From the IMG/VR virus record IMGVR_UViG_3300001167_000001, positions 1 through 58,225 of that record: 58,225 nucleotides of DNA. One strand, written 5' to 3'. Both the position numbers and the translations under genes were made by a program. This DNA comes from a virus. The notes below the pieces were generated by a model. It did not search any database, had not been told where the DNA came from, and saw only the letters and a list, made by a program, of their open reading frames with translations. Below, piece after piece: positions 1 to 58,225 of the stretch; position 1 is the stretch's first letter; each line of letters begins with the position of its first letter.

Positions 1-143
1 CCGCGCCGCCTTCGGCGCCGCTCGCGCTGATACAGGCCGCCGTCGGTTCCGATTTCCCAATGTACACGCAAGCTCGCGTGTGCGCGTATGGCGGGACTGG
101 TCCTGGCGCGTTGTACACGCAATATCCCATCGGAGCGCACTAA
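1..143 (+). CDS. 3' fragment (cut by window start) of the 191-aa signal-peptide/N-terminal-module protein
   Basis: Identical to 52678..52820; TAA at 141..143. Confidence 0.7.
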   Translation, partial: APPSAPLALIQAAVGSDFPMYTQARVCAYGGTGPGALYTQYPIGAH

Positions 144-166
144 ATACCCAATGAGGGGCGCACCCG

Positions 167-478
167 ATGGTTGCCAATCCTATAAAGACGATACCGCGAA
201 GCTATCAGTCCTGGGTCAATCTCGCCGTCACGCCAGCAACCGATTTTGAGCTGGATGCGGGTAGTTACGGACTCACGGTAGCTACTGCCGGCTTCACCAG
301 TTACCAGCTCCAGAGATTGCTGCCTGACGGGGTGACGTACACGCCTGCCATGCCAGTGGCGGCCGCGGCTGGTTATACTGTGCTTGATCTGCCGGCGGGG
401 CGGTACAGCATGGTTGTTGTCGGCGCGACGGCGTTTACTGGCTTGATCGAGAAAATCGATACGGGGCGCGCACGATGA
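167..478 (+). CDS. Hypothetical small virion-module protein (103 aa)
   Basis: ATG preceded by GAGGGG. Stop overlaps the next start (ATGA at 475). Lies in the fibre gene run. Confidence 0.6.
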   Translation: MVANPIKTIPRSYQSWVNLAVTPATDFELDAGSYGLTVATAGFTSYQLQRLLPDGVTYTPAMPVAAAAGYTVLDLPAGRYSMVVVGATAFTGLIEKIDTGRAR

Positions 479-4813: not shown

Positions 4814-4880
4814 AGTACGTGCTGAAATTCAACGCGACAATAGCTTTATCTACGGTAGGGATAGATTAAGTAGGATATTA

Positions 4881-5168
4881 ATGATTATCGACGCAGGAAC
4901 TGTAGCTGCCGGGGTTGCCGCCTTGAACCTAGTACTCACAATCGGCGGCGGTAGTTTCTTTGCTGGCAAGCTGACCGGCAAAATTCAGCGCATAGAAACC
5001 GACGTGAGGGAAACGAAAGGCTTGCTTATCACATCCGCAGTCGAAGCCGATCGGCTGCGGCGTGCGGAAGCTGACATTCACAGCGTGGAAATGGACGTTC
5101 GGAATCTGCGCAAGGGCGTCGGCTGGATAAATGACGCAGGCGCGAAGGGTGTCAATCGGGAGTATTGA
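4881..5168 (+). CDS. Small membrane/coiled-coil protein (95 aa)
   Basis: ATG 4881 in frame within tracked ORF 4707..5168. Hydrophobic N-terminus (AAGVAALNLVLTIGGGSFFAG) then a charged helical region. Confidence 0.5.
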   Translation: MIIDAGTVAAGVAALNLVLTIGGGSFFAGKLTGKIQRIETDVRETKGLLITSAVEADRLRRAEADIHSVEMDVRNLRKGVGWINDAGAKGVNREY

Positions 5169-5174
5169 ACTTTC

Positions 5175-5197
5175 TGCCGCTTTGCGGCATTGTTTAG
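5175..5197 (+). terminator. Weak Rho-independent terminator candidate
   Basis: TGCCG-cttTG-CGGCA hairpin followed by TTGTTT, just after the 5168 stop. Confidence 0.3.
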
Positions 5198-5227
5198 CAC
5201 CATGTCTAAAACCTAGGAGAGAAAACC

Positions 5228-5647
5228 ATGAGTGATCTAAAGGGCGGCCTTCAGGGCATGTTCGACGTGCTGAAGGGTGTGGAAGAACGCGCTCGCAAGC
5301 TGAAGAACCAGAACCTTGCGGACATTGCAGCGTCGGCGCACGGTCGCGTGAAGCAGCTCATCGACCACCCCGACACCGAGCTGGTGGACGAGAGGAAAGA
5401 CCAAGCGCACCCCGGCAACCCGCTGTACGTCGCACCCGCGACCAAGGACGAAGCGATTGCCAAAATGCGAGCGGACGGTGACGCTGACCCGGAAGGCACG
5501 GCGAAGCTGAATTGGCCGCACCTGTTTGAGCCGGGGGCCGCCGGCGGGTTTGCTCGCGCGCCGCAGCAAGAGCCGGGTGCTCAGCAGTGGCCTGGACAAC
5601 CGCAGTCCCGGCCGCTCGGCGCTGACGAATACCGGCGCGACCGTTAA
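5228..5647 (+). CDS. Hypothetical protein (139 aa)
   Basis: AGGAGAG 7 nt upstream of the ATG. Charged N-terminus, P/G/Q-rich C-terminus. Confidence 0.6.
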   Translation: MSDLKGGLQGMFDVLKGVEERARKLKNQNLADIAASAHGRVKQLIDHPDTELVDERKDQAHPGNPLYVAPATKDEAIAKMRADGDADPEGTAKLNWPHLFEPGAAGGFARAPQQEPGAQQWPGQPQSRPLGADEYRRDR

Positions 5648-39307: not shown

Positions 39308-39517
39308 TGCCTGCGTCACGGCGTTGTCAAACAGACGCGGGTCATAACCCAACCGGTGCCACCGCGACTGGATCAAACGCGTCTCGCTTGCACTTAGGAC
39401 AGCGTTCGTTTTCTAGAATCCCGCCCGCGTCACAAACCACGCATCGCCAAGTAGATGTATCGCAAATATGCCCCGTCAACTTCGGAAAATCACGGCCGCA
39501 AACGAGAAATGAGACTT

Positions 39518-40399
39518 TTAGCCTGGAGCGCCCTCAAATGTGGCGGGCGGCGCGATTGGAGGGGCTACTGGAATGCTTGTTGTGGGAGGGGCTGGAATCG
39601 CCCCCGGGGGCAGATTGATCTGCATGGTGCAGGTTTCGTTCGTGGGCAATTTAGGTCGTGGCGGGTTGGCTACACGGTTGCAGCCATCGTCTGTGCAATT
39701 ACCCTCATCGCACAAGGCGTGCAGAAATACGAGTTCACCTCGCACGTTCATCGTTCCAAAAATGCGCCAGCAGAATCTAGTAGTTCGAATATCGCTCCTA
39801 AACACGTCTTTATATCTCGCCCATCCCCAAATGTACGCGAATCGGAACCTTTGCTGCATTTCATTAAGATAGCTTTGAGGGAAAAATCCGACCGATCCGT
39901 CTGGTTGTCGAAAGGCGGGCGCACTCAAAACTTGCTTTGGGCCGACAGAAGATGGCCCGTCAATTTTTTTCGTACTATCAACATTTGTGAAGCCTTCAGC
40001 CAAATCGTCTCTAGAAAATTGGAAATTCACAATGGAGTTCATTTCAAGAGCAGCGGTGTTTCCAGTGTTTTCCCATTGGGGAATGAAGTAGTACCCGATG
40101 ATGGTATTTATTTGAGTTTGGTTGACGATAACACTCAGTGGAACGATCAGGGCATCGTGAAGAATTATCGAGGCCCGTTGCGCGTAATAGAGATTGTCTT
40201 TTTCAGTTTGCGAAGTACAGGTCCCGAGAACAAAGAGGCACGCTGTTACTCCGGTATATATGGCTACGGCTACGAACGTGCGTATGCTCCATGTGCGATT
40301 TTGCTGTTGGTGTTCATCGTTTTTAGCCTGAGCGGTCTGATATTCAGCAGCAAAGGATTTAAACGCCGCGACAGAAAGGGGACGATCCTCATCTTCCAT
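39518..40399 (-). CDS. Membrane-anchored protein of unknown function in a low-GC island (293 aa)
   Basis: AGGAAA SD 7 nt before ATG 40399. Single TM segment (WSIRTFVAVAIYTGVTACLFVLG), Cys-rich and Pro-rich C-terminus. The region is visibly more AT-rich than its flanks. Confidence 0.6.
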   Translation of the reverse strand: MEDEDRPLSVAAFKSFAAEYQTAQAKNDEHQQQNRTWSIRTFVAVAIYTGVTACLFVLGTCTSQTEKDNLYYAQRASIILHDALIVPLSVIVNQTQINTIIGYYFIPQWENTGNTAALEMNSIVNFQFSRDDLAEGFTNVDSTKKIDGPSSVGPKQVLSAPAFRQPDGSVGFFPQSYLNEMQQRFRFAYIWGWARYKDVFRSDIRTTRFCWRIFGTMNVRGELVFLHALCDEGNCTDDGCNRVANPPRPKLPTNETCTMQINLPPGAIPAPPTTSIPVAPPIAPPATFEGAPG

Positions 40400-40513
40400 G
40401 GCTGGCTTTCCTTTGTGATCGCTCTAGTAGCTGCCGCGTGGCTTATTACTGGTGAACATGTTTTTATTTCCAGTTCTGCTGAGCGCGTCTCCGCCGCCCC
40501 CGGGATCGACGCC

Positions 40514-40702
40514 TCAGCAACGTGCTATAGCCGCGCCGAAAATGTCCGCGTTCTCCCGATTGTTATACCGGAACTCAAACTCGGCAACGTAGAGCGGCAT
40601 GTACTTGGCGCTGACCTTGTGGAACGTGCCAACCACGCCGCGTTTCAGGATCGACCAGAAGATTCCGAAGGGCCGTGCGAGGCGGCCCGCTAGGTTCGGG
40701 AG
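40514..40702 (-). pseudogene. IS1595-family (ISXO2-like) transposase, C-terminal remnant only (about 62 codons)
   Basis: Hand translation ...PFGIFWSILKRGVVGTFHKVSAKYMPLYVAEFEFRYNNRENADIFGAAIARC* matches the family C-terminus (FWS.LKRG..G.YH.VS.KHL..Y..EF.FRYN.R). An in-frame TGA lies immediately upstream. Confidence 0.7.
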
Positions 40703-40723
40703 TCAAGTATATAATTCCCTTTT

Positions 40724-40976
40724 ATGCTTATCCGGTTGTCACCCATGCGATCCGGTAACCTGTACCTGCACACAAACGATATCTGGGCGCGCCGGGAACA
40801 CACGATTTTTTGCACGTTCGCAGTCGGATTGACCGAGATATAGGCCGTTCATCGCCGATGGCCCGGCGGTGTTGAGCGTTTGGTAGCAGCTAGGAAGCAG
40901 TCCGCAATTTAGCGTGGTCCAAAGTAGCATTATGAACATGATTTCATCTCCTTATGGGTGACAACCGGATAAGCAT
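40724..40976. mobile_element. 253-bp miniature element with 23-bp terminal inverted repeats, flanked by a 10-bp direct repeat
   Basis: ATGCTTATCCGGTTGTCACCCAT (40724..40746) is the reverse complement of 40954..40976. ATTCCCTTTT occurs at 40714..40723 and 40978..40987. The termini share CATGCTTATCCGGTT with the MTase cassette. Confidence 0.7.
40739..40939 (-). CDS. 66-aa hydrophobic-N-terminus peptide carried by the miniature element
   Basis: AGGAG SD 8 nt before ATG 40939. MFIMLLWTTLNCGLLPSC... The stop lies inside the left inverted repeat. Confidence 0.45.
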   Translation of the reverse strand: MFIMLLWTTLNCGLLPSCYQTLNTAGPSAMNGLYLGQSDCERAKNRVFPARPDIVCVQVQVTGSHG

Positions 40977-40985
40977 GATTCCCTT

Positions 40986-41156
40986 TTATATCGTCCCCAT
41001 CACAACACGAAACATGACGTACGCGAAGAACGCGGTGACGATCAGCAATGCACCGCCGACGACAATGCGCGCTGTACGTACACCGAAGGCGAATGTGATG
41101 GCGGCGACGAGCATGAACAGCGAGAACGAGCCGCCGTGTCTGTGTCCGTGGGTCAT
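40986..41156 (-). CDS. Micro-ORF, 56-aa two-TM membrane protein
   Basis: Hand translation MTHGHRHGGSFSLFMLVAAITFAFGVRTARIVVGGALLIVTAFFAYVMFRVVMGTI. Starts 3 nt after the upstream stop. Confidence 0.45.
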   Translation of the reverse strand: MTHGHRHGGSFSLFMLVAAITFAFGVRTARIVVGGALLIVTAFFAYVMFRVVMGTI

Positions 41157-41159
41157 GGC

Positions 41160-41366
41160 CTAGGCCCCCACGATGATGTTGTGGCGGCTCTTAAACGCAG
41201 CCCGTTGTTCGCTCGACAGGTCGTAGTACATGGATGCGATAAGCGCTTCCAGCATGCCGAGCTGATAAGCCGTACGGTATTCGATGCACGTGCCGGATGT
41301 TACGGCTCGATCGGCGGAAATTCGCTCCCACGTTTTGCTCAGAACCAGAGGATCCACGCTCATCAC
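41160..41366 (-). CDS. Hypothetical protein (68 aa)
   Basis: ORF; ATGA coupling with 41363. Confidence 0.5.
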   Translation of the reverse strand: MMSVDPLVLSKTWERISADRAVTSGTCIEYRTAYQLGMLEALIASMYYDLSSEQRAAFKSRHNIIVGA

Positions 41367-42788: not shown

Positions 42789-43253
42789 ATGAGTAACCTA
42801 GTCACTTTAAGTAACCACGTCAGGCTGCCTGAGTTGGCTGTACGTACGGCTAACCTGCATCAGGACCGGATAAACGCGCTCGTACGGATGAATAGTCCGA
42901 CTCTCACTACGGCCTGCAGACAAGCCGGATTGCCGATCGAACTGGCGGAACTCTGCGGTGGGTTGCTCGCGAGCGTGGTGGACGACCTTGTGGCGATCGG
43001 GAATCTGCGGCGTACGGATTTCGAGCGCACAAAGCGCAAGCAACGCGTTCTAGCGGCTGCCGATGAGCCTGCGGCGTCGGCCCTGCGGATTGCCATTGTC
43101 GCGTCGCCGGTCAATGGGCAGGCTGCTGTGGCTCATTGGGACGCCATCTGCGAGGGTTACGAACTCGGCAAGTTGGCCTGGCTGCTCGGTATGGACACCG
43201 AGACAAGCTGGGGTTATGGTCGCCGGATGGAAAAGCGAAATAATCGTGTCTAG
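42789..43253 (+). CDS. First gene of the rightward early operon, hypothetical (154 aa)
   Basis: ATG 42789 within tracked ORF 42714..43253. Confidence 0.5.
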   Translation: MSNLVTLSNHVRLPELAVRTANLHQDRINALVRMNSPTLTTACRQAGLPIELAELCGGLLASVVDDLVAIGNLRRTDFERTKRKQRVLAAADEPAASALRIAIVASPVNGQAAVAHWDAICEGYELGKLAWLLGMDTETSWGYGRRMEKRNNRV

Positions 43254-43257
43254 GGGG

Positions 43258-43286
43258 TTGACAGGGTTTTGTGGCGTGCTAGTGTA
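43258..43286 (+). promoter_or_regulatory. Sigma70-like promoter candidate
   Basis: TTGACA (43258..43263), 16-17 nt spacer, TAGTGT/AGTGTA. Intergenic, upstream of 43324. Confidence 0.3.
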
Positions 43287-43323
43287 CGTACATCGAAAAC
43301 GAAGAGCCGCTGGAGAGCGAAAA

Positions 43324-43491
43324 ATGATTAAGCTGGTAGAAAAGAAAAACCACGACGCGGTGCATGCCTTATTTGATGACCGCACCCGTGCTGAACAGCA
43401 TTTACAAGTTATTATTCCTGATTTTGTACGACGCGGTTTGTTTATGGATAAGACACTAACTGCCGACAGTTTTGAAATTATTGAAGATTGA
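43324..43491 (+). CDS. Hypothetical small protein (55 aa)
   Basis: CGCTGGAGAGCGA leader 3 nt before the ATG. MIKLVEKKNHDAVHALFDDRTRAEQHL... Confidence 0.5.
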   Translation: MIKLVEKKNHDAVHALFDDRTRAEQHLQVIIPDFVRRGLFMDKTLTADSFEIIED

Positions 43492-43516
43492 AACCTCAAA
43501 CCGCTGGAGAGCGACC

Positions 43517-43927
43517 ATGAACACGAACCTCCCCGCCCTTGAAATCGTTTACGACACGCTGCAAACCGCGCTTGCGCAGCTGCAAGCCATCAACGCCGAC
43601 GCCATCGAAAGCGCCAATCTTGTGCCGATGGTCAAGGCCGTGCAGGCGATCGGTGCGTTCCAAGCTGCTATCGACGCGCAAATCCAGGCGCGTGCGATCG
43701 GCAACGGTGAGTTGATCCCCGGCGTCGTCGTGAAAGACAGCGTTGTGCATCGCCGCTGGTCAGATCCCGAAGTCGCCGCGCAGCTCGCGCAAGAGACGAT
43801 CGGTGATAAGGCTTTCAGCCGTACGCTGTTGTCGCCGGCACAGATGGAAAAGCTGGGCGATGATGGCAAGTCGTTTGTTGCTGTGGCTTCGTTCAAGCCG
43901 GAAGCTGGCAAGTGTGTGGTGTACTGA
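43517..43927 (+). CDS. Stand-alone paralogue of the C-terminal domain of the Cas4-like nuclease (136 aa)
   Basis: PGVVVKDSVVHRRWSDPEVAAQL...LLSPAQMEKLGDDGKSFVAVASFKPEAGKCVVY versus PGAVLKPGRSFRQWNDQEQAAKV...PISPAQAEKLGPAGKQYAAVGAHKPEGQLKASY in 31846..32841. Confidence 0.55.
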   Translation: MNTNLPALEIVYDTLQTALAQLQAINADAIESANLVPMVKAVQAIGAFQAAIDAQIQARAIGNGELIPGVVVKDSVVHRRWSDPEVAAQLAQETIGDKAFSRTLLSPAQMEKLGDDGKSFVAVASFKPEAGKCVVY

Positions 43928-44029
43928 TATGGAAATCGCTCAATTTCTTACGCAGTGGTTCGATAGTCATGTGACGTGGGGCTGGCTAGGGTTTTGTCTG
44001 TTTCTCTACTGTGTCGCGCCGAGGAAGTG

Positions 44030-44227
44030 GTGACCCGCTACCATCGCAAATGGGACCGTCGCGGCAGGCTGCTCAACGCCGTACGGAAGTTGCTCGCCGG
44101 CATAATCACTGCTAGCGATAACTCAGTGATTGAGCGTGGGCAGCCACGTAGTGAGGACGCGGAGTGGTTGTACTTCCGTGCTAAGTCGATGGTCATCAGG
44201 ATAAAGAAGGAGTTGAGCCGTGGCTGA
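44030..44227 (+). CDS. Hypothetical basic protein (65 aa, GTG start)
   Basis: GAGGAAG SD. GTGA overlap with the preceding micro-ORF stop. Confidence 0.4.
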   Translation: MTRYHRKWDRRGRLLNAVRKLLAGIITASDNSVIERGQPRSEDAEWLYFRAKSMVIRIKKELSRG

Positions 44228-44387
44228 TACGTTTTTTGTTAGACCTGAAGACGCACAGCGCACCATCGACGCCAAGATCGAACGGTTGCGTCAGCGCATT
44301 AAAAATGCAAAATGGTACGAAGGCGAAGCCGCGCGCTTGGCAAATATCCTGCTCGGTGTTCTGGATTTGCTGGGGGATGAGCTATGA
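44220..44387 (+). CDS. Hypothetical small protein (55 aa, GTG start, below track cutoff)
   Basis: AAGGAG SD. Hand translation (V)ADTFFVRPEDAQRTIDAKIERLRQRIKNAKWYEGEAARLANILLGVLDLLGDEL. Confidence 0.4.
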   Translation: MADTFFVRPEDAQRTIDAKIERLRQRIKNAKWYEGEAARLANILLGVLDLLGDEL

Positions 44388-44571
44388 GCAAACTTGATGA
44401 AGCATGGCCTTGGGTTGGCGTGCTGTTGTTTTGTGCGCTCGCAACAGCGGTGCCGAGCATCATCGCGCATTTGATTGTGCTGTACGGAGGTTGAACAATG
44501 CCGTACACAGTAGAGCTCGCACATAACGATGGTGGCGGTTTTGAACGCTATTGCTTCGATTGGAACGAGAT

Positions 44572-44772
44572 ATGACCCTCCAAGAATTCGCCGCGCTCAA
44601 AGTCGGCGACAAGATCGAAAACCACGCCATTGGCGGTACGGGTCACGGCGAGATTGTGGAAACAACGCCCAGCGGCGTGCGTGTTGTGTGGGGTCCGCGC
44701 CACGATCGTGAAACGAAATTTTTCTACAGTGTCGTCGGTACGGCCTGGATGCAGTGGAGCAAAGTGTTGTGA
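44572..44772 (+). CDS. Hypothetical protein (66 aa)
   Basis: ATG 44572 within the tracked ORF. SH3-like composition (VGDKIENHAIGGTGHGEIVE). Confidence 0.5.
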   Translation: MTLQEFAALKVGDKIENHAIGGTGHGEIVETTPSGVRVVWGPRHDRETKFFYSVVGTAWMQWSKVL

Positions 44773-45251
44773 TCTGGAGCGATAAGCAAATTGCGCTGCT
44801 CAAAAAGCTCTGGCCCCAAGGTTTGCCGGCGGGTCAAATTGCCGACGAAATCGGCGTTGGGCGTAATGCTGTGGTTGGCAAAGCGCGTCGGCTCGGCTTA
44901 GGAGAGCATTCGGGGAGTACGCGGAATTTGCAGTTACGCGCCGCACAACGAGTTACGCCGCAAAAGTCGGGACCTGTATCAACACGGTTAAAAATACGTG
45001 GCCGACATGGCGCGTTTGGGGCTGGGTTAGAATTACAAGTTGCGCCGTCTATTTTGCCACTGATGCCCGACGGTTCCAACATCCCACCCGCACAACGCCG
45101 TACATTGTTGCAACTCAAACCCGGCGTCTGCAAATGGCCCTTCGGCGAACCGCAGTCCCACGATTTCTTTTTCTGCGGCGGCGACGCTATCGAGGGCAAG
45201 CCATATTGCGCGGGCCATTGTCGCGTGGCTTATCAGGCTCCCAAGCGCTAA
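44769..45251 (+). CDS. gcrA: GcrA-family cell-cycle regulator homologue (160 aa, GTG start)
   Basis: N-terminus WSDKQIALLKKLWPQGLPAGQIADEIGVGRNAVVGKARRLGL. C-terminus CKWPFGEPQSHDFFFCGGDAIEGKPYCAGHCRVAYQ. Both GcrA signature regions are present. Confidence 0.75.
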   Translation: MIWSDKQIALLKKLWPQGLPAGQIADEIGVGRNAVVGKARRLGLGEHSGSTRNLQLRAAQRVTPQKSGPVSTRLKIRGRHGAFGAGLELQVAPSILPLMPDGSNIPPAQRRTLLQLKPGVCKWPFGEPQSHDFFFCGGDAIEGKPYCAGHCRVAYQAPKR

Positions 45252-45257
45252 AGGAAA

Positions 45258-45983
45258 CATGCTTATCCGGTTTAAACACACAAAAGTTCCGAGCCACTAA
45301 ATGTTGATGCAACCAAAACCTAAGGCTCTCGACCTGTTTTGCGGCGCTGGCGGCGCAACCATGGGGCTGCATAATGCTGGCTTTGAAGTGGTCGGCGTCG
45401 ATTTGAGACCGCAGCCGCATTACCCCTTCCGCTTCGTCCGCGCCGACGCGCTGAGACCCCCCTTTGACTTGCGAGAATTTGACCTTGTGTGGGCTTCCCC
45501 GCCTTGTCAGGCGCACGTCGGCTTTAATGCTTCCTGGAACGACCACCAGCACGTTTCGCTTATCGATGAGACCCGCAAGCTGTTGGCAGGGCATCCTAGA
45601 TACGTGATCGAAAACGTCGTCGGGGCGCCGCTGCGCAACCCGATGACCCTTTGCGGAACACATTTTGGCCTGGGAGTACGCCGGCATCGGCGTTTCGAGA
45701 CCAATTTCGGCTGTACCGCTCGGAAAGCTTGCTCTTGCCGGGGCAAAAAGCTTGTCGGCGTGTACGGCGACCATCCACAAGGCCATTTCGGCGATGGGTA
45801 TCGGATACCGCGTGCGCGCTCGATCGCAGAGGCGCGGGAGGCTATGGGCATCGATTGGATGGATTGGCGTGAAATCACGCAAGCTATTCCTCCCGCCTAT
45901 TCCGAGTACATCGGGCGTGCTGCCTTGGCCCATTTGCAACAGACACAAGATGTAGAGCTGTGTGTTTAAACCGGATAAGCATG
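45258..45983. mobile_element. 726-bp TIR-bounded cassette carrying only a C5-methyltransferase gene; 8-bp target-site duplication
   Basis: Perfect 25-bp inverted repeats at 45258..45282 and 45959..45983. AAAGGAAA lies directly outside both ends (45250..45257, 45984..45991). Confidence 0.8.
45301..45969 (+). CDS. Compact DNA (cytosine-5)-methyltransferase (222 aa)
   Basis: Motif I DLFCGAGG, IV SPPCQ, VI ENV, VIII RRHRRF, X QAIPPAYSEYIG. Confidence 0.8.
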   Translation: MLMQPKPKALDLFCGAGGATMGLHNAGFEVVGVDLRPQPHYPFRFVRADALRPPFDLREFDLVWASPPCQAHVGFNASWNDHQHVSLIDETRKLLAGHPRYVIENVVGAPLRNPMTLCGTHFGLGVRRHRRFETNFGCTARKACSCRGKKLVGVYGDHPQGHFGDGYRIPRARSIAEAREAMGIDWMDWREITQAIPPAYSEYIGRAALAHLQQTQDVELCV

Positions 45984-46134
45984 AAAGGAAACACTGTGGT
46001 AGGCAATCAAAAAGCCATCTTATGGATTTGGGGCGTGGGGTTTGCAGTCGCAATTATAATTGTATTTGCCGCCTAAGTGACAAACCAGCCCTAACCGTGC
46101 TACCGTCCCGCAATTCAGTTGCGGAGCGGTCAAA

Positions 46135-49100
46135 ATGTCTGACGTATTCGGCGGCGGCCTCGATACACAATCGGGCGCGTCGGTCTACAACGGCGATGGT
46201 AGCGGTGCGCTGCCTGCCGGCGGCTTGGACATGCCGACTGCGCAGCCACAGGCGCCCGCACCACAGCCGCCAGCGCAATCGAGTCCGACGTTCGGCAGTT
46301 CGTTCATATCGCCGTTCTCGAACTATAAGCCGCTGGAGGATCCGAAAGCGTCGGCACTCGATCAATCGGCCAGCTTGCTGCAACAGCGCATCACGCGTGC
46401 CAGCAAAATAGCGACCAATCCGCTTGCGGCGTTCTTCATGCCCGAGCAAGTGCAGGCAGCCCGCGACGCCGTGCCGAAGATGACTGAGCAACTCCAGCAA
46501 ATTCAGACGCAAAAAGCAGCTGTACAGGCTGGCCGTGCGCAAGCGCAAACGCTGGGCTTGACACCGGACGAGGCGCCGGATCAAGCGACAATGGAAGATC
46601 GTATTGCGGTCGCCTCGAACAAAGCACTCAGAGGCGACCTGCAAGCATTCCAGGGTATCGCAGCCGTCGCGCCCGACAAGGCGGCTGCCCTTGCTCCACA
46701 GGTCTACGCAGCGTTGGGCGGCCATTTGAATAACGCGCAGACTGCTTTCGACAGCCTGTCAGGCATGGAAAACGAAGGACAATATCAAGCCAAGATCAAA
46801 CAACTGCGTCAAGATGGTACGTTGACCGATCTTGAAAGCGCCGGTTTGAAATTGCCACCGACGTTCGACGCATTCAAGGCTGCGGCGCCGGCCGAAGCGT
46901 TGGCACTTCGTAATGCGCGTGCTGCGTTGAACGCACAAGGGCAGGCGATAGAACAGCGCAACACCTACGTTCCGATGGAAAGCAAAGAGCAGGATACGTA
47001 CAAAGGCGCGCTGAAAACTGTGTACGGCGATGAGCTAAATCTAGGCCCGTGGTCGCGCAATGGTGCGTCGGGCACACGCGGTCAGCTCGCAAATGGCATC
47101 GCGACTGTGGATGACTACGGCAAGACGGGTAGCGCCGCGACGGCGGACCAGCGCAAGGAAATCAAGGAAGCGTTCGCTGCTGCCGCGCCCCCGGCGGACG
47201 TTGAAAAGTATCGCGGGTTTAACCGTATTTACGACATAGCGACGAAGGACGCGAAGGGCAATCCGCTGCCGGCCGATAAGATCAACACCAACCCGAACGT
47301 ACAGCAAGGCGTCGCCGAAGGCTTGGCGTCCATGCTGCGCGGCGGCCGTGCCAGCGCCAATGTCGGCTTGCTGAATATCGAGACCGCCAAGCGTGGCGTG
47401 ATGCAAGCCATGTTTGACAAGATTCAGAGCGGGTACGCTGGCGCGCTTAACGCGCTCACAGGCAATGAAGTGCGGCCGTACTTGACAGGGGTTACGCAAG
47501 ATCAGATTCGTCAAGTCATAGACGGTCTGAAGCAGTGGAACGATGCGAGCATTGGCGACCGCGCGACCGGAATCGCGCGACGCGCGGGTGCGCTCGGCAT
47601 GGACGCGTCGGCACTGGGATTAGGCCAGGACGAAGCAAACGGCGTTATCAATAACGCAATTGAGGAAGGCCGCCGTGCGCAAGTCGAACGCATGCGCCCG
47701 TACTTTCAGCCGATCGGCGCGGGTAACGGCGTGTTGCAGCTCGGCGCGCAACGCCCCGGTGCGGGGCCGATTAGCCTGCCACCCGGATCGCAGCCGGCTA
47801 ACCAGATTCCGGGCGCACAACCCCTCTTGACGCCCGTACAGCAAGCGGGGCAGAATACCAACGTTGTTGCGCCCTCATCAGCACAACAACCCGTACCGTC
47901 GCCGGCTTCGCCCCCCAATACGAGCCCCGGCGGCGGTGCGGGCCAGCCTCCAGCGCCGCCGCAGCGACCTGTTACAGTCGCAGGCCAGCAAGTCAATGTT
48001 TCGCTGCCGCCGGGCGCTTCGCCTGCGTACGTGACTTCGCTACAACGCATTGAAACCGGCGGCGCTCGCAATCCGTGGACCGCGAAGGCCGACAGCACAA
48101 GCGCGGGCGGTGCGTATCAGTTTATCAAATCGACGTGGGACGCGAACAAGCCGCCCGGCGCTCCAGCGCGTGCGCAAGATGCCACGCCGGAACAACAAAC
48201 GGCTGCGCTTGAAAAACTAACAAATACGAATGCGTCGGCGCTGCAAAGCGCCGGAATACCTGTCAACGATACAAGCCTGTACGTCGCGCATAATCTTGGC
48301 GCGACCGGCGCGGCTTCGCTATTAAGGGCCAATCCAAACGCCGATGCACGTACGGTTGTCGGCGAGGCTGCCGCAAAGAACGACCCGCTATTTTTCAGGG
48401 GGCGCCCGACTGTTGCGACGGTGTTGCAGCGTTATGCCGATGCCGTGGGTAGCAACGCAGGTCCGGGCGGCCAACCCGGCAGTCCCACACCAAATTTGAC
48501 GCCGTTGCAGCGCGAAGCACTGGCACGGCGCGGGGTGGACACTTCGGCTCCGGGGCCGACGTCTGAGCAGCGGGCCGACCAGTGGGACCAGACGCGTGAG
48601 GGTTTAGCCGACGCCGCGCCTGCCGCACTTTCAACGGTTGGCGCTGCAGGCGGCGCGCTTACCGCCCCCGTTACCGGCCCGTTTGGCGCCGTGGGCGGCG
48701 GTGCGGCTGGCGGCTACGTCGGCAACGTTGCGAAGAACTACCTGAAGGGCAAGCCGCAAAACCAAATCGAGAATGCAGAACAAGCTGCGCTTGGTGGTTT
48801 GCTTAGTGTCGCGGGGCCGGCGCGACTGGCGACAAAAGCAGGACTCGCGGTGCTCGCGGGCCAGACAGCCGGAAGTGCCGCTATCGAAGCGGGCACAGTC
48901 GGGGCGGAAGGCGGCAGCGGCCCTGAAATGGTTGACGCTGGCTTGCGCGGCGGGGCCGAAGGTCTTGGCGGTAGACTGTTTGGGCACGCGCTCGGCATGG
49001 GGCTGAATAAAGTTTATAGCTTGTTTACGACCGACGCGCAAAAGACCGTACAAGCCGCTGCGAAGGACCTGCACGAAGCAAATCAAACGTTAGCTACGAC

Positions 49101-52244: not shown

Positions 52245-52820
52245 ATGAAGACTTTCACTGCTAGACTTCGCGCTGCGTTGGCTGCACTGGCTTTGCTGGC
52301 GCCGGCTCCCGCACTGGCTTTGCTGGCGCCGCTGCCCGCGCTTGCGCAAACCGTCGTACAAGTCCCCGTCAACGTGAATGCGCGTGCGGTCGCTGACTTG
52401 GGCAACGGGCCAACCGAAGTCCGGATGATCCAGGGCAGCATGGGGCTCTTTACGGCTCAGGGCTCTGGCGTCGGCAGCACGTCGGGTTCGTCCACCGCAC
52501 TTACGCTGACGGCGAGCGCCGCAGCCAACCCGCCTTGCGTCGGCTGCATCATTTCCGGCGTCGGCATTACGTCGGGCACTACTGTCGCCGCGTTCAACGG
52601 CACGACCGGCGTTACGCTCTCCGCAGCGATGACCGTTGCGGCCTCTACGCCGCTCGCATGGGGCCAGGCGTGCCCGTCCGCGCCGCCTTCGGCGCCGCTC
52701 GCGCTGATACAGGCCGCCGTCGGTTCCGATTTCCCAATGTACACGCAAGCTCGCGTGTGCGCGTATGGCGGGACTGGTCCTGGCGCGTTGTACACGCAAT
52801 ATCCCATCGGAGCGCACTAA
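52245..52820 (+). CDS. Signal-peptide-bearing protein consisting of the tailspike N-terminal module only (191 aa)
   Basis: Residues about 35-185 align with residues about 25-165 of the 814-aa tailspike (ADLGNGP..VRMI.G....FTAQGSG.GSTSGSSTALTLTA...SGITSGTTVAA.NGTTGVTLSAAMTVA...MYTQARVCA). 21-bp unit repeated at 27-bp spacing (52284..52304, 52311..52331) in the signal peptide. Confidence 0.65.
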   Translation: MKTFTARLRAALAALALLAPAPALALLAPLPALAQTVVQVPVNVNARAVADLGNGPTEVRMIQGSMGLFTAQGSGVGSTSGSSTALTLTASAAANPPCVGCIISGVGITSGTTVAAFNGTTGVTLSAAMTVAASTPLAWGQACPSAPPSAPLALIQAAVGSDFPMYTQARVCAYGGTGPGALYTQYPIGAH

Positions 52821-52843
52821 ATACCCAATGAGGGGCGCACCCG

Positions 52844-53155
52844 ATGGTTGCCAATCCTATAAAGACGATACCGCGAAGCTATCAGTCCTGGGTCAATCTC
52901 GCCGTCACGCCAGCAACCGATTTTGAGCTGGATGCGGGTAGTTACGGACTCACGGTAGCTACTGCCGGCTTCACCAGTTACCAGCTCCAGAGATTGCTGC
53001 CTGACGGGGTGACGTACACGCCTGCCATGCCAGTGGCGGCCGCGGCTGGTTATACTGTGCTTGATCTGCCGGCGGGGCGGTACAGCATGGTTGTTGTCGG
53101 CGCGACGGCGTTTACTGGCTTGATCGAGAAAATCGATACGGGGCGCGCACGATGA
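52844..53155 (+). CDS. Second copy of 167..478
   Basis: Identical translation. Confidence 0.6.
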   Translation: MVANPIKTIPRSYQSWVNLAVTPATDFELDAGSYGLTVATAGFTSYQLQRLLPDGVTYTPAMPVAAAAGYTVLDLPAGRYSMVVVGATAFTGLIEKIDTGRAR

Positions 53156-54072
53156 AAAAATTTCTATTCGCCGCGCTATTGATGTTGGGCGCGCTACCCG
53201 CGAATGCTCAGCAGCATACCGATGCTCTGATCGTATCGGCGTGCGGTACATTGCCGGTTCCGTACGTCGCCGGGACTTATAATTACGTGACGATGGATAC
53301 GACGGGGAAGTTGTGCGATAGCGGCAGCGGAGGCGGTGGCGGCGGTACTCAGAACGTCAACCTTACTCAGATATTGGGCGCCGCACCGAGTGCGACAAAT
53401 CCGCTGTGGGTATCTCCTGCGACCGGCGCGACGTTCCCTGTTAGTGCAGCATCGCTGCCGCTGCCGACCGGCGCGGCAACGCAGACGACACTCGCGGCCA
53501 TCCTCGCAGCACAAGGCGCGGCGCCTGCACAACAGACCGGCGCGACGGTCGGTATTGTTGCCGGATCGGCGGTTATCGGTAAGGTCGGCATAGATCAGAC
53601 GACGCCGGGAACAACCAATGCCGTATCGGCGACGAATTTTCCCAGCACGGTCGCGACGGGTACAGGTGCTCAAGGTGCGACCGTTCCGCGCGTCACGGTC
53701 GCAACCGATCAAGCCACCAATGCGGGCGCCGCGTTGGTCAAGGGCGGCGTTGGCGTCGTCAATGGAGGCAGCACTTATCAGGCTGTGGCAGCATCGCAGA
53801 CCGCAACGGTCCTCCAAACATCGACCGGGGCAATCGGCGATTATCTTTCGCATTGTGTGATCTATCCGACCTCCACATCGCCGGGCGTCGTGACAGTATT
53901 TGATAATACAAACGCTGCTGGTACCAACGTCATCGCCTTTCCTGGTGGTGCTAGTAGCGTGTCGAACCTTGTACCAATCGCCGTTCCAGTTGGCGCAGTT
54001 AGTACCGCTGGAGCGTGGAAGGTGACGACTGGCGCGAACGTGTCGGCTGTCTGTTACGGGAAATTCAGCTAA
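53152..54072 (+). CDS. Second copy of 475..1395
   Basis: Identical translation. Confidence 0.65.
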   Translation: MKKFLFAALLMLGALPANAQQHTDALIVSACGTLPVPYVAGTYNYVTMDTTGKLCDSGSGGGGGGTQNVNLTQILGAAPSATNPLWVSPATGATFPVSAASLPLPTGAATQTTLAAILAAQGAAPAQQTGATVGIVAGSAVIGKVGIDQTTPGTTNAVSATNFPSTVATGTGAQGATVPRVTVATDQATNAGAALVKGGVGVVNGGSTYQAVAASQTATVLQTSTGAIGDYLSHCVIYPTSTSPGVVTVFDNTNAAGTNVIAFPGGASSVSNLVPIAVPVGAVSTAGAWKVTTGANVSAVCYGKFS

Positions 54073-55058
54073 TGCGCCGCGTCGTCGGCTTTTTTCTGTT
54101 GGCGCTCGTTTCTTTGTTGCCTGAAACTATTTGTGCGCAGGCAATTCTTCCGGGATTTCCGCCGGGGGTTTTCACTAACCGCGCGGCGCTCGATCCGGCA
54201 CCTGCGGGGGGCTTTCAAGGCCCCGGCGACATCACGTCGGGCGCCATTGCATTCTATTCCTGCGGCCGGGCCTACAATGCGGCATATGCCGCAGGAGCAA
54301 ATCCAGCCTGCGATCTCGTCGATACCGGCACAGGGCTTGCGACCTGCACGATTTCATTTGGCACAAACGGCCTTGCTAATTTAACAGCCGTGGCCTGCCC
54401 GACAGGGGCACCGACCGTCAACGTCGTGACATTCTGCGCGGTGACTCACCCGTCAGGATGCAGCCTGACTAAGATGTACGACCAGACCGGCACCGGCAAT
54501 CATGTGGTGCAGGCGACGCTCGCCAATATGCCGGTGCTGACGTTCAGTGCGCAGAATGGGTTGCCGTGTGCGGCGGGAACGGGAAATGCGGCGATGCGAC
54601 TCGCAACGGCGGGCAGCATTTCGCAATCTGCGCCATTTAGTGCGACGGCGGTTACGGAGAGAACCGGAAGTTTTACGACGACGCAAAAGATAATCTCGAA
54701 CGGGGCCAACGCCAGTACGTTTAATTTTACGGCGAGCGCGAACAGCATATCTTCGGCGCTCGGCAGTTCAGCGGCCGTGACTTTAACCGCCGCAGATAGT
54801 TCGTTTCATGCGCTGCTAGGAGTTGCGAGTGCGACCGCCCCGCTATTCGCGGTTGACTCAAGCGCCAATACTTCGACCACGACAACTGGAACAACCGCTT
54901 TGGCAGGCAGTCAATTTCTCATGGGACGCAGCACGGGGGTACAGGCTCTTCTTGCCGGCTTCGTCTGCGAAGTCGGCATCTGGCCAGCCGATCTCAACTC
55001 ATCCTATCAAGCCATGCTCGCCAATATGCGCAGCGCGACCAATGGGTGGAATTTTTAG
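54072..55058 (+). CDS. Second copy of 1395..2381
   Basis: Identical translation. Confidence 0.6.
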   Translation: MRRVVGFFLLALVSLLPETICAQAILPGFPPGVFTNRAALDPAPAGGFQGPGDITSGAIAFYSCGRAYNAAYAAGANPACDLVDTGTGLATCTISFGTNGLANLTAVACPTGAPTVNVVTFCAVTHPSGCSLTKMYDQTGTGNHVVQATLANMPVLTFSAQNGLPCAAGTGNAAMRLATAGSISQSAPFSATAVTERTGSFTTTQKIISNGANASTFNFTASANSISSALGSSAAVTLTAADSSFHALLGVASATAPLFAVDSSANTSTTTTGTTALAGSQFLMGRSTGVQALLAGFVCEVGIWPADLNSSYQAMLANMRSATNGWNF

Positions 55059-57490
55059 TGCGTAGATTTCTAGCCGCCTCAGCAGTACTGCTCTTTACGG
55101 CGTTCCCCGCGCTCGCGCAGAACGCCATCACTCTGCCGATCGCCGCGAACGCGGTCGCCGACTTAGGCAACGGCCCTATCAAGGTCCGCATGATCGCGGG
55201 TAACGCATCAATTTTCACGGCACAAGGATCTGGCACTGGCAGCACGTCGGGTTCGTCCACAGCACTGACTTTGACTGCGACGCCGGCAACGCCACCGCTC
55301 GTTGGTGGCCTGATTTCCGGCAGTGGCATCACGTCAGGAACGACGGTCGCAGCGTACAACGGTACAACGGGCGTAACGCTGTCGGCGGCCATGACTGTAG
55401 CCGGCGGTACGACGGTTTCATGGGGCGCCGCGTGTCCATCAACGCCACCTAGCAGCGTAATTCAGGCGTCGCCTTCGGCCGACGGCTATGTGATGTACAC
55501 ACAAGCGCGCGTGTGTGCAGTTTCACCGGGTGGCCCGGTTAACACGCTTTTGATTTCTCCGGTTTTTCAGGATAGTCAAGGTGGAAGCGGCAGCGGGAAC
55601 GTAAATGGGCCGGCAACATCGATCGTAGGAGGCGTCGCGGTATGGAAAAACGGGGCTGGAACTTTACTCGCAGACGGTGCAACAGATGACGGATTTTTTG
55701 GTTCAGGTCGTCCATGGGCCGATATTAGGGCCTACGGCGCTAAAGGCGATGGTGCGACGGACGACACAGCGGCGATAACAGCGGCGTATAATCAGCTTGC
55801 CGCAATTGGTGGCGGTGACCTATTCTTCCCGCCAGCACCTAACGGTCTTTATTGCACCTTTACTGGAATAACGATTTCCAACGGCAACGTGCATTTGAGA
55901 TTCGCCGCCAACGGCGCGGCTTCAAATGGAATCAGTTCTTTAAGTTCTTGCGGCCACGATGTCACGACGTTGAATTTGAACGCCGGCTCTATCATACTGG
56001 ACTACGCAAATATCATCGGCGATGGGTATGGCGCGACGCACCCGGCACTGGATTTCGGTCCAAGTTGCGGCGGTTGCAAAATGCACTTCGGCAGCGTCAG
56101 CGGCGGCACTTCTCCGGTATTGATCGAAGGCGTTGATGACCGTATCGAAAACGTCAACGTTGCTCCAGGTTACGGCACTGCATCGATTAAGATCATCAAT
56201 GGCGCGACGTATTTAGATCATGTTTCAGCCGATCTTAGCCCCCCGGTCTACACGCTGACTAATGCCAATTTCAGCGGCGGCGCCGCGTCGTGGGCGGCAA
56301 CCCATGCCTATTCTGGTTCGGTGACTGTCTCAACACAGGGATTTTTTATTCAGCTTGTAACGGCAAGCTGTACTAGCGGTGGCAGCGCGCCGACGCTGAA
56401 ATCGTACGGAACAAACATTACGGACGGTACTTGTACGTGGAAATTATTGTCACCTGGAACTTATTACAGTGTACAGGTCGATACCGGGGCCAGCGCAGTC
56501 TATCTGAACAACGGCGATAGTAGCGGGCCTTTTGTGGCAGGAGTCGGCGTTACAAACACAAGTGCAGGCACGGCACCGGGTGGCATCACCGTTGAAAATT
56601 GGAATTTCGGGGCTAACCTACAGGCTGGAATTTACGCTCATGACGGCAATACGCTTTCGGTTTCAGACTCTACACTGAATGGATGCATCTATGGTGGCTG
56701 TGCTGGTATTTATACTTTAGGGTCGTGGACCGGAGTCGTGAATGCGAGCAGTAACTTAATTGTTGGTGAACAGGCCGGCATCGATTTGACCGTCGGCGGT
56801 GGCGACACCATCGTCGGCAACACCATCGTTGCCAATGTAACCGGCGTGCTCGTCTCCAACAATTATGCGAATTTCAACATCAACAACAATAATTTTTATA
56901 ACGCGGCGTACGGCGCCAATTCCGGTAACGATATTACGATCGGTACGGGCGCGATACACTGTAATGTCATCGGCAACAGTAGCAACGGCGGTACTTTTAG
57001 TACAGGGGCGTGCAAAGCATTCGCCAATGACGGTTCTGTCGTAAGTTACACCAACGGTGGCACCAACGCCACGTCGCTTGCGGGGGCGCAGGCAAATTTG
57101 TTGATCGGAACATTAATGAGCGTTCCGGCTACTGTGAATTTTGCGGTGGCTGGTGATTATGCGATCGCGGTCCCACTTCCTGCGGGATTCACACAATTTA
57201 GAGCCGACGATATTGTCATATCGCAGTGTAGTGTATCGCTTTCTGGCGCCACATTCGGTCTATTCACGGCAACCGGAGGCGGTGGCGCGGCGATCATCAC
57301 GGCAGGTGCTACTTCGAACGTAACAAACAATACCGCTAATACAAATAACAACATGCAATTCGGCGCCGGCTTTATTAATAACATTGGTACGGAGGCGTAC
57401 ACACCAGTTAGCGGAAATGTCCAATTTCGTGTTGGTTCAACGGCTGCAGGAACGTGTTCTGTGGCGTTTCAATATAAACCTGTGCCATGA
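55046..57490 (+). CDS. Second copy of the tailspike 2369..4813
   Basis: Identical translation. Confidence 0.7.
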   Translation: MEFLVRRFLAASAVLLFTAFPALAQNAITLPIAANAVADLGNGPIKVRMIAGNASIFTAQGSGTGSTSGSSTALTLTATPATPPLVGGLISGSGITSGTTVAAYNGTTGVTLSAAMTVAGGTTVSWGAACPSTPPSSVIQASPSADGYVMYTQARVCAVSPGGPVNTLLISPVFQDSQGGSGSGNVNGPATSIVGGVAVWKNGAGTLLADGATDDGFFGSGRPWADIRAYGAKGDGATDDTAAITAAYNQLAAIGGGDLFFPPAPNGLYCTFTGITISNGNVHLRFAANGAASNGISSLSSCGHDVTTLNLNAGSIILDYANIIGDGYGATHPALDFGPSCGGCKMHFGSVSGGTSPVLIEGVDDRIENVNVAPGYGTASIKIINGATYLDHVSADLSPPVYTLTNANFSGGAASWAATHAYSGSVTVSTQGFFIQLVTASCTSGGSAPTLKSYGTNITDGTCTWKLLSPGTYYSVQVDTGASAVYLNNGDSSGPFVAGVGVTNTSAGTAPGGITVENWNFGANLQAGIYAHDGNTLSVSDSTLNGCIYGGCAGIYTLGSWTGVVNASSNLIVGEQAGIDLTVGGGDTIVGNTIVANVTGVLVSNNYANFNINNNNFYNAAYGANSGNDITIGTGAIHCNVIGNSSNGGTFSTGACKAFANDGSVVSYTNGGTNATSLAGAQANLLIGTLMSVPATVNFAVAGDYAIAVPLPAGFTQFRADDIVISQCSVSLSGATFGLFTATGGGGAAIITAGATSNVTNNTANTNNNMQFGAGFINNIGTEAYTPVSGNVQFRVGSTAAGTCSVAFQYKPVP

Positions 57491-57557
57491 AGTACGTGCT
57501 GAAATTCAACGCGACAATAGCTTTATCTACGGTAGGGATAGATTAAGTAGGATATTA

Positions 57558-57845
57558 ATGATTATCGACGCAGGAACTGTAGCTGCCGGGGTTGCCGCCT
57601 TGAACCTAGTACTCACAATCGGCGGCGGTAGTTTCTTTGCTGGCAAGCTGACCGGCAAAATTCAGCGCATAGAAACCGACGTGAGGGAAACGAAAGGCTT
57701 GCTTATCACATCCGCAGTCGAAGCCGATCGGCTGCGGCGTGCGGAAGCTGACATTCACAGCGTGGAAATGGACGTTCGGAATCTGCGCAAGGGCGTCGGC
57801 TGGATAAATGACGCAGGCGCGAAGGGTGTCAATCGGGAGTATTGA
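57558..57845 (+). CDS. Second copy of 4881..5168
   Basis: Identical translation. Confidence 0.5.
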   Translation: MIIDAGTVAAGVAALNLVLTIGGGSFFAGKLTGKIQRIETDVRETKGLLITSAVEADRLRRAEADIHSVEMDVRNLRKGVGWINDAGAKGVNREY

Positions 57846-57904
57846 ACTTTCTGCCGCTTTGCGGCATTGTTTAGCACCATGTCTAAAACCTAGGAGAGAA
57901 AACC

Positions 57905-58225
57905 ATGAGTGATCTAAAGGGCGGCCTTCAGGGCATGTTCGACGTGCTGAAGGGTGTGGAAGAACGCGCTCGCAAGCTGAAGAACCAGAACCTTGCGGAC
58001 ATTGCAGCGTCGGCGCACGGTCGCGTGAAGCAGCTCATCGACCACCCCGACACCGAGCTGGTGGACGAGAGGAAAGACCAAGCGCACCCCGGCAACCCGC
58101 TGTACGTCGCACCCGCGACCAAGGACGAAGCGATTGCCAAAATGCGAGCGGACGGTGACGCTGACCCGGAAGGCACGGCGAAGCTGAATTGGCCGCACCT
58201 GTTTGAGCCGGGGGCCGCCGGCGGG
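57905..58225 (+). CDS. Second copy of 5228..5647, truncated by the window end
   Basis: Identical sequence up to the window edge. Confidence 0.6.
   Translation, partial: MSDLKGGLQGMFDVLKGVEERARKLKNQNLADIAASAHGRVKQLIDHPDTELVDERKDQAHPGNPLYVAPATKDEAIAKMRADGDADPEGTAKLNWPHLFEPGAAGG

Follow-up and report, generated by a model that had tools for sequence, protein, structure and literature searches.

What brings a single DNA methyltransferase gene, enclosed by two perfect inverted repeats and accompanied by no transposase, to the very end of a phage gcrA gene? The question is raised by a 58,225-nt stretch of viral DNA (IMG/VR record IMGVR_UViG_3300001167_000001, positions 1 to 58,225; this whole stretch is called the window below), in which a 726-bp unit is located directly downstream of a gcrA homologue. 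The unit is very probably a non-autonomous mobile insertion cassette (MIC) derived from an insertion sequence (IS) of the IS1595 family, which was inserted by DDE-type transposition, would be mobilized in trans and carries the methyltransferase gene as its cargo.

Anatomy of the 726-bp unit

The left inverted repeat, CATGCTTATCCGGTTTAAACACACA (45258-45282), is matched by its exact reverse complement at 45959-45983 (25 nt, 100% complementary, 676 nt apart). This pair is the longest inverted repeat within 2.3 kb of the region. When up to three mismatches are allowed, CATGCTTATCCGGTTTAAACACACA has only two matches in the 58-kb window and none in 100 dinucleotide shuffles. Directly outside both repeats is the octamer AAAGGAAA (45250-45257 and 45984-45991). 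The direct repeat can be extended to 10 nt (AAAGGAAACA), as the two bases that open the left repeat happen to equal the right flank; this decamer occurs in the window only at these two places, compared with 0.13 occurrences expected by chance. The left copy of the octamer covers the last two bases of the gcrA stop codon (TAA, 45249-45251).

The sole credible open reading frame (ORF) of the unit (45301-45969, 222 aa) accounts for 92% of its length and ends with a TAA (45967-45969) that falls in the right terminal repeat. No similarity to a transposase was found in the unit by ORF content, tblastn or profile searches. The initial annotation of this locus, made from the sequence without database searches, had described the repeats and their positions, the flanking octamers, the methyltransferase as the only gene, the lack of a transposase and the insertion on the stop codon of gcrA (identified here by its PF07750 match), and all of these are reproduced. 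Both the anatomy of the unit and its nature as a transposon can be stated with high confidence.

A family of elements with the same termini

A first scan of IMG/VR with part of the repeat recovered two contigs in which the same termini surround different genes, each with its own 8-bp direct repeat. The terminus pattern is present in more than 119 stretches in IMG/VR and in 35 stretches in 185,579 GTDB species genomes, the latter mostly from Hyphomicrobiales (Bradyrhizobium, Rhodoplanes, Xanthobacteraceae, Pseudolabrys and Hyphomicrobium). Elements were collected with a degenerate terminus pattern and their ends were then paired, giving at least 112 non-redundant elements among the matches listed, a lower bound. 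They are 171-2685 bp in length; more than 100 phage contigs from metagenomes contain them, as do a few genomes of Hyphomicrobiales. The outer 15 nt (consensus CATGCTTATCCGGTT) are at least 90% conserved at both ends across all 112.

A perfect duplication of exactly 8 bp flanks 78 of the 112 elements (70%). Perfect flanking repeats of other lengths are nearly absent (none at 6, 7 or 10 nt, two at 9 nt). The duplicated octamers have a GC content of 32%, compared with 58% for the loci that contain them, and show a palindromic preference (nWWBVWWn). Several cassette copies can be present in a single phage genome, and some of these share identical ends of approximately 45 nt within one genome. Matches of 20 nt or more to the 5' end of the cassette are absent from 50,697 GenBank phage records and from 72,556 PLSDB plasmids, and a megablast search with window positions 43000-48000 recovered nothing from GenBank phages.

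When the largest ORFs of the 112 elements are grouped by similarity, 87 clusters result, and the majority of the cargos have no Pfam match. Those recognized by Pfam include the IS1595 transposase, TnpB (L023 and L074; loci are given as L numbers), four C5 methyltransferases (that of the window included), N6_N4_Mtase proteins (L143 and L154), a Dam-like D12 methyltransferase (L083), Mom (E-value: 4.6e-33), NADAR (E-value: 2.7e-26), Fic and an RlaP nucleotidyltransferase. Radical-SAM and DHHA1 matches among the cargos are weak. The TnpB-like proteins (357-367 aa, with OrfB_IS605 and a Cas12f1-like TNB domain) are the sole cargos of L023 1253-2408 and L074 3703-4850; as TnpB stands alone between IS1595-type repeats, an RNA-guided nuclease gene is here borne by a DDE-type cassette.

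Two cassettes of different length (520 and 751 bp; L011 5707-6226 and L058 6322-7072) occupy one insertion site, and their cargos (131 and 208 aa) differ in the number of tandem repeats of an approximately 11-aa unit, YADYKAKRATL. In two isolate genomes a cassette is found among chromosomal genes: in Bradyrhizobium viridifuturi (L124 5279-5958) the neighbours are AMP-ligase and SDR genes, and in Ferrovibrio xuzhouensis (L141 566-1240) there is an argininosuccinate-lyase-like neighbour, these neighbours being named from motif reading only. The family is thus not strictly confined to phages.

Cognate transposase and evidence of movement

Longer elements with the same termini (1.3-2.3 kb; L050 3979-5875, L034 2423-4390, L041 6158-8410, L014 and L076 9353-10676) are autonomous copies. 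The first three have perfect 8-bp duplications, and the outer 15 nt of the window element are the same as the ends of L050, L034, L041 and L076. The autonomous copies encode a protein of approximately 350 aa (clade 1 below) with the conserved domains Zn_ribbon_IS1595 (PF12760; E-value: 2e-12) and DDE_Tnp_IS1595 (PF12762; E-value: 7e-32), which matches the NCBIfam model NF033547 (IS1595 family transposase) with an E-value of 9.9e-54. The transposase gene is preceded by one or two additional small ORFs. Homologues of the clade-1 transposase are abundant in metagenomes; the few named ones are annotated as IS1595 family transposases and are from Terriglobales and Methylocella metagenome-assembled genomes. 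Long antisense ORFs overlie the full-length transposase genes.

Members of the family have changed position. The elements L006 11810-12174 and L031 7073-7437 are 98.3% identical, with different perfect duplications (CTATATTT and AATGGATA, respectively) and unrelated flanks. Four further pairs of this kind have 86-93% identity. For the insertion in L101 (duplication TTTGCAAT), a homologous uninterrupted site is present in L008; the two align across the junction at 81% identity, and L008 has the octamer only once. This empty site, together with the non-autonomous copies that are nearly identical yet differently located, argues indirectly for mobilization of the cassettes in trans. The suggestion that the window unit bears the footprint of DDE-type transposition agrees with all of these findings, as does the remark that 8-bp duplications are an IS1595 trait; they occur in 78 of the 112 members, three autonomous copies included. 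Mobilization by an IS1595-family enzyme supplied in trans, which the same annotation had proposed, is borne out by inference, and both the other copies and the cognate transposase that it recommended searching for were found by the terminus scans of IMG/VR and GTDB.

At the window locus itself, the cassette and the 26-aa ORF that follows it (Table 1) are both missing from the position downstream of gcrA in three syntenic relatives, whose GcrA proteins are 47-49% identical. In all three, gcrA runs straight into the conserved leader of the gene for a 1349-aa protein.

Table 1. Positions of the cassette, its parts and neighbouring features in the window
Feature	Position	Strand	Remarks
Left 8-bp target-site duplication, AAAGGAAA	45250..45257	.	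Overlaps end of gcrA stop codon; family-wide length exactly 8 bp
Left (5') terminal inverted repeat	45258..45282	+	Outer 15 nt, CATGCTTATCCGGTT, are the family-invariant terminus
Leader mini-ORF, MLIRFKHTKVPSH then stop, 13 codons	45259..45300	+	ATG in terminus; TAA (45298-45300) abuts cargo ATG (45301); putative function
5' subterminal conserved segment	45283..45318	+	Holds CACTAAATGTTGATG motif supplying cargo start codon at element position 44
Cargo: compact C5-cytosine DNA methyltransferase, 222 aa, activity predicted	45301..45969	+	Motifs I, IV and VI; PF00145; AlphaFold2; Foldseek
3' subterminal conserved segment, CAGACACAAGATGTAGAGC	45931..45958	+	Encodes tail ..QTQDVELCV common to other cassette cargos
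Right (3') terminal inverted repeat	45959..45983	-	Contains cargo stop codon TAA (45967-45969)
Right 8-bp target-site duplication, AAAGGAAA	45984..45991	.	Can also be read as ribosome-binding site of downstream small ORF
Upstream neighbour: GcrA homologue, intact	44754..45251	+	PF07750, E-value 4.3e-34; 160 aa from 44769 in public assembly call
Downstream neighbour: 26-aa hydrophobic small ORF, GTG start	45996..46076	+	Right duplication copy just upstream; absent from distant syntenic relatives
Second cassette, 255 bp, CACCCAT subtype of repeat	40723-40977	-	Flanking repeat ATTCCCTT imperfect, offset 1-2 nt
IS1595-family transposase C-terminal remnant, second lineage	40517..40702	-	Homologous core ~40562-40660; 62 codons

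The methyltransferase cargo

The 222-aa protein contains the C5-methyltransferase motifs I (LFCGAGG, residues 12-18), IV (SPPCQ, residues 66-70) and VI (ENV, residues 104-106), in that order, and C69, E104, N105 and V106 are invariant in a 63-sequence alignment of homologues. It matches PF00145 with 25.3 bits (cut-off 22) over profile positions 3-111 of 324, which is the N-terminal part only, and TIGR00675 with 20.2 bits (cut-off 100.65). The AlphaFold2 model has a pLDDT of 91.5 and a pTM of 0.90, and its top Foldseek matches are the catalytic domain of DNMT3A/3B, M.HaeIII and a prophage methyltransferase (3g7u), with E-values from 6e-9 to 5e-7, a probability of 1.0 and a TM-score of 0.6. Motifs and fold thus support the earlier assignment of the protein as a C5-cytosine DNA methyltransferase of the Dcm/DNMT type, with predicted catalytic activity.

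Its closest homologues, P0004 and P0003 (approximately 80% identity), are encoded by ordinary phage genes that lack the repeats and have different N- and C-termini. Cassette-borne homologues (L042, L106, L035 and L165) are only 46-58% identical to the window protein and have its first 9 and last 12 residues, approximately, in common with it. Nucleotide homology to the non-cassette methyltransferase genes is confined to 45319-45930. With a core like that of non-cassette genes and ends of the cassette type, the cargo appears to have been exchanged or captured between fixed ends. Two readings fit this chimeric structure: either the core was swapped between fixed ends, or cassettes decay into fixed genes.

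The gene for P0004 (L163 2501-3774, 80% identity) is directly upstream of gcrA in another phage and abuts it, while the window cassette is directly downstream. The adjacency of methyltransferase and gcrA could be a functional pairing or a coincidence. In L164 (3146-5642), a portal protein gene beside a non-cassette methyltransferase homologue has two Phage_portal_3 matches with a weak Hint_2 match in between, suggestive of an intein.

Ends that frame the cargo

The elements were oriented by their GC3-weighted coding ORF; the 3'-end signature is unusable for this purpose because the subterminal motif is inverted at both ends. The oriented 5' end is CATGCTTATCCGGTTgcCaCACACAAACGCTGAGacctACTAGATGTTGA, and in 31 elements with unrelated cargos the cargo ATG is at element position 44. 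Forty-one cargos start with the residues ML. A subfamily has the 5' end CACACAGGAGCTAGATCATG, which carries its own AGGAG. The oriented 3' end is CACAAgATnTAGGGCTGTGTGTCTaAACCGGATAAGCATG, with stop codons 14, 28/29 or 41 nt from the end, and the cargo tails ..QDVGLCV, ..HKM and ..HNI, each running to the stop codon, are recurrent. The ORF covers a median of 82% of the element family-wide.

At position 2 of the terminus is an ATG that opens a 13-codon ORF. Among the 82 elements examined, the stop codon of this leader either abuts (29) or overlaps (19) the cargo start, 48 in all. No promoter-like or terminator-like site was found on the coding (+) strand of the cassette. In 47 elements the cargo runs in the same direction as both flanks, and in 15 it runs against both. 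From these features we infer, with moderate confidence, that the cassette is a promoterless module whose translation would be coupled to that of the leader. The duplicated target resembles a ribosome-binding site in 14 of 60 cases in the orientation of the cargo and in 4 of 60 in the reverse orientation, a faint hint that it usually serves as one.

Proposed model

The proposed sequence of events starts with DDE-type transposition of the cassette into the AT-rich spacer at the gcrA stop codon of the phage, which would have duplicated AAAGGAAA. The transposase is proposed to bind the common termini (CATGCTTATCCGGTT) together with the inner CACACA and CTAGATGTTG-like motifs. Movement would take place only with a cognate IS1595-type transposase in trans, encoded by an autonomous copy that either a co-infecting phage or the host carries. 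Because the cassette has neither promoter nor terminator, it is probably transcribed by read-through from gcrA. The conserved ends would then supply the translation signals: the terminus opens the leader ORF, whose stop abuts the cargo ATG, and at the 3' end two of the three reading frames are brought to a stop. Most plausibly, and with moderate confidence, the methyltransferase would modify the phage DNA and so shield it from restriction.

Several points weigh against this interpretation. The transposition of the family is read from comparisons of sequences. Perfect duplications are lacking at 34 of the 112 end pairs (e.g. L004 68-807, L027 9570-10309 and L106 1153-1878), which are tentatively attributed to recombination between copies, in one genome or between phages, or to the mis-pairing of adjacent ends. 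The initial annotation had recommended a comparison with related phages for a site that lacks the cassette and has a single AAAGGAAA. The cassette is absent from the three relatives described above, but the uninterrupted site of the window copy was not found among the related phages, which are distant (GcrA 47-49% identity), and two metagenome scans, one with the predicted empty junction and one with the right flank, gave no match. The phage has no intact transposase, so the window copy may be immobile at present. Membership of the methyltransferase in PF00145 and TIGR00675 is weak. The co-orientation counts come from a crude gene caller, which mis-called the flanks of a second cassette in the window (Table 1), and the geometry of the leader ORF could be an unselected by-product of a conserved transposase-binding sequence.

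Alternative explanations

The element could instead be a dead relic, once mobile and now a fixed gene, with repeats that persist by chance or serve expression. We consider this unlikely. The 52.7-kb genome retains only a 62-codon transposase remnant, and an exact-protein look-up of the window methyltransferase shows the same context in all public contigs that carry it. Cassette lineages can also be old, as the divergence of the cassette-borne methyltransferases to 46-58% identity indicates. On the other hand, full identity between the 25-nt repeats (100%) and a perfect duplication point to recent insertion or to selection on the ends. Relatives have moved recently, and mobilization in trans needs no resident transposase.

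The identity of the trans-acting enzyme is a separate matter, as a second IS1595 lineage (lineage 2) accompanies the cassettes. Its genes (approximately 310-330 aa) are present in about 12 cassette-bearing loci, within a few kb of cassettes; they include L016 4588-5580, L100 6323-7261, L008 10025-10969, L033 5584-6546, L036 6809-7741 and L122 7081-7998. They share a promoter-like upstream leader (AGGGAATTATATACTTGACTCC...TAGATT), and no inverted repeats or duplications were found around them. The window contains a remnant of such a gene (40517-40702), which matches Pfam DDE_Tnp_IS1595 at profile positions 121-153 of 153 (E-value: 9.8e-10, 39.1 bits), is also matched by a profile search of the window (E-value: 1.8e-4) and is 79% identical to the full-length gene of L016. 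It is fused to the conserved upstream leader of lineage 2 (AAAGGGAATTATATACTTGACTCCC, 40698-40722); since this leader is joined to the last 60 codons, the lineage-2 gene must have suffered an internal deletion. A tblastn search of the window with the clade-1 transposase gave no match, the remnant being seen only with the profile search and Pfam. The transposase remnant noted earlier at a distance of 4.5 kb from the cassette is therefore real. Two points are to be corrected: its lineage is a second one within IS1595, and it abuts a second cassette that had not been listed.

The lineage-2 transposase may be phage-resident or domesticated. That this enzyme, resident in many of these phages and with a promoter-like leader of its own, is what mobilizes the cassettes in place of the repeat-bounded clade 1 is decidedly unlikely. 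Its genes are close to cassettes in about a dozen loci and have a conserved leader without inverted repeats, and the remnant in the window belongs to this lineage and abuts a cassette. However, only clade-1 genes are bounded by the cassette termini with 8-bp duplications, no binding sites were found for the lineage-2 enzyme, and the proximity may reflect the sampling of loci around repeat matches.

It is very unlikely that the cassettes or their cargos moved mainly by homologous or site-specific recombination between the ends, in the manner of integron cassettes or of T4-type promoter stem-loop modules. The end pairs without a duplication would fit such movement, as would the chimeric window cargo, with its cassette-type termini around a core nearest to non-cassette genes, and the copies with identical ends of approximately 45 nt inside one phage genome. 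Yet the 8-bp duplications at 70% of the copies, the palindromic AT-rich targets and the autonomous copies with a DDE transposase form a signature of transposition, and the elements have no associated recombinase. Recombination probably supplements transposition and does not replace it.

Finally, the notion that the repeats are a regulatory palindrome or operator of a methyltransferase gene family, flanked by coincidental octamers, is practically untenable, for although the repeats extend over the start region of translation and over the stop codon, as might be expected of a regulatory element, the closest homologues P0004 and P0003 lack them, the same termini surround approximately 87 unrelated cargo families, transposases included, and 78 of the 112 elements have 8-bp duplications; a palindrome common to methyltransferase loci, named beforehand as what would overturn the transposon interpretation, is thereby excluded.

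Relation to known mobile elements

The preferred reading, that of an IS1595-derived MIC, places the unit in a known class. MIC231 of Bacillus cereus is mobilized by IS231A (Chen et al. 1999; De Palmenaer et al. 2004; as summarized in PMC3129680 and PMC6542083). The 726-bp unit has the features that define a MIC, namely IS-type inverted repeats, no transposase and an unrelated passenger gene. Like MIC231, the cassettes described here have IS ends around passenger genes, lack a transposase, generate target duplications and would depend on a related autonomous IS. They differ in that their ends are of the IS1595 type (MIC231 belongs to IS4/IS231) and in that the family is overwhelmingly located in phage genomes. 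They also have approximately 87 cargo families in 112 copies, nearly always as single genes, and ends that provide a start codon, a leader ORF and stops. Mobilization in trans, finally, is here proposed from sequence comparison, in contrast to MIC231.

The IS1595 family is known for transporter ISs with passenger genes (Siguier, Gagnevin and Chandler 2009, as reported in PMC3129680). The N-terminal zinc ribbon, the ISXO2-like DDE domain and the 8-bp duplications of the clade-1 transposase and its family are shared with IS1595, and the one or two small ORFs that precede the transposase gene in the autonomous copies resemble the arrangement in transporter ISs. The window element, unlike these, has no transposase at all.

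MITEs (miniature inverted-repeat transposable elements) are likewise short and non-autonomous, with inverted repeats and target duplications, and the 255-bp second cassette (40723-40977) is of MITE size. A survey that makes no mention of IS1595 or of cargo detected MITEs in just 0.2% of viruses (PMC11602168). MITEs are non-coding and shorter than approximately 500 bp; the window element is not one of them, as its length is 726 bp and a single ORF with a confidently modelled methyltransferase fold takes up 92% of it, in a family with a high median ORF coverage.

In function, the cassettes resemble those of integrons: diverse promoterless single-gene modules with conserved bounding sites, outside expression and accessory functions. 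Integrons, however, use a tyrosine recombinase, attC hairpins and a fixed attI site, and produce no duplication, whereas the elements described here have DDE-type inverted repeats, 8-bp duplications and scattered AT-rich sites. Identity with integron gene cassettes is rejected on the grounds of these ends and of the associated enzyme, a DDE transposase.

Small mobile elements with inverted repeats are also found in mycobacteriophage genomes, where MPME1 and MPME2 (approximately 440 bp) contain one small ORF. This ORF is the putative mobility gene; the ends are not known to be related to those of the cassettes, and the elements are not known to carry diverse cargo.

According to published reports, phage genomes seldom contain ISs or MITEs, and this rarity is ascribed to efficient removal by purifying selection (as discussed in PMC11602168 and its reference 21, and in PMC3429520). 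The cassette family is an exception, with one gene per element and a size compact enough for tolerance, and it carries the kinds of genes that phages use against host defences. No description of a phage-borne, ORF-framing cassette family was found in the full-text literature searched, a scope that does not extend to ISfinder or subscription journals. The kind of element, a MIC, is known; the new features are the phage setting, the scale and diversity of the family, the single-gene format and the ORF-framing ends.

A broader interpretation is possible, and we offer it only tentatively: the family may be a phage-specialized, transposase-driven gene-cassette system, a functional analogue of integrons for viruses. 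Such a system would comprise hundreds of promoterless single-gene modules, with ends that are at once transposase-binding sites and a translation frame that travels with the element (a leader ORF to which the cargo start is coupled, plus stop codons already in place). Through it, genes for DNA modification and counter-defence (C5, N4/N6 and Dam methyltransferases, Mom, NADAR, Fic and TnpB) would pass between phages of Hyphomicrobiales and neighbouring soil and freshwater bacteria, with a phage-resident clade-1 or lineage-2 transposase as the shared engine. If the mechanism proposed for the family holds, phages would have in it a concrete means of gaining accessory genes and of exchanging them. 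The 15-nt terminus could then be used as a sequence tag for mining phage accessory and counter-defence genes from metagenomes. Ends of approximately 45 nt and a 350-aa transposase would also make a small, testable system that could help to engineer alphaproteobacterial phages.

Genome context and minor features

The second cassette in the window contains an ORF of 66 aa (40739-40939, - strand) with AAGGAG just upstream. A 412-aa ORF at 39455-40693 (+), antisense to the transposase remnant, has no Pfam or PHROG hit and an odd composition, and is probably spurious. An Rfam scan of the whole window gave no match. ARAGORN predicts an 88-nt tRNA-Ile (GAT) at 41140-41227 (+), which is long for a tRNA-Ile and is not matched by an Rfam tRNA at the gathering threshold.

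Positions 1-5548 of the window are identical to 52678-58225, giving a unit genome of 52,677 bp; these identical ends indicate a circularly closed or terminally redundant assembly. Phage genes in the window include those for a large terminase, a DNA polymerase, a helicase, a primase and the 1349-aa protein, which contains a transglycosylase. The same sequence is present in a public ENA metagenome assembly as WILH17-1 scaffold_10 (52,732 bp).

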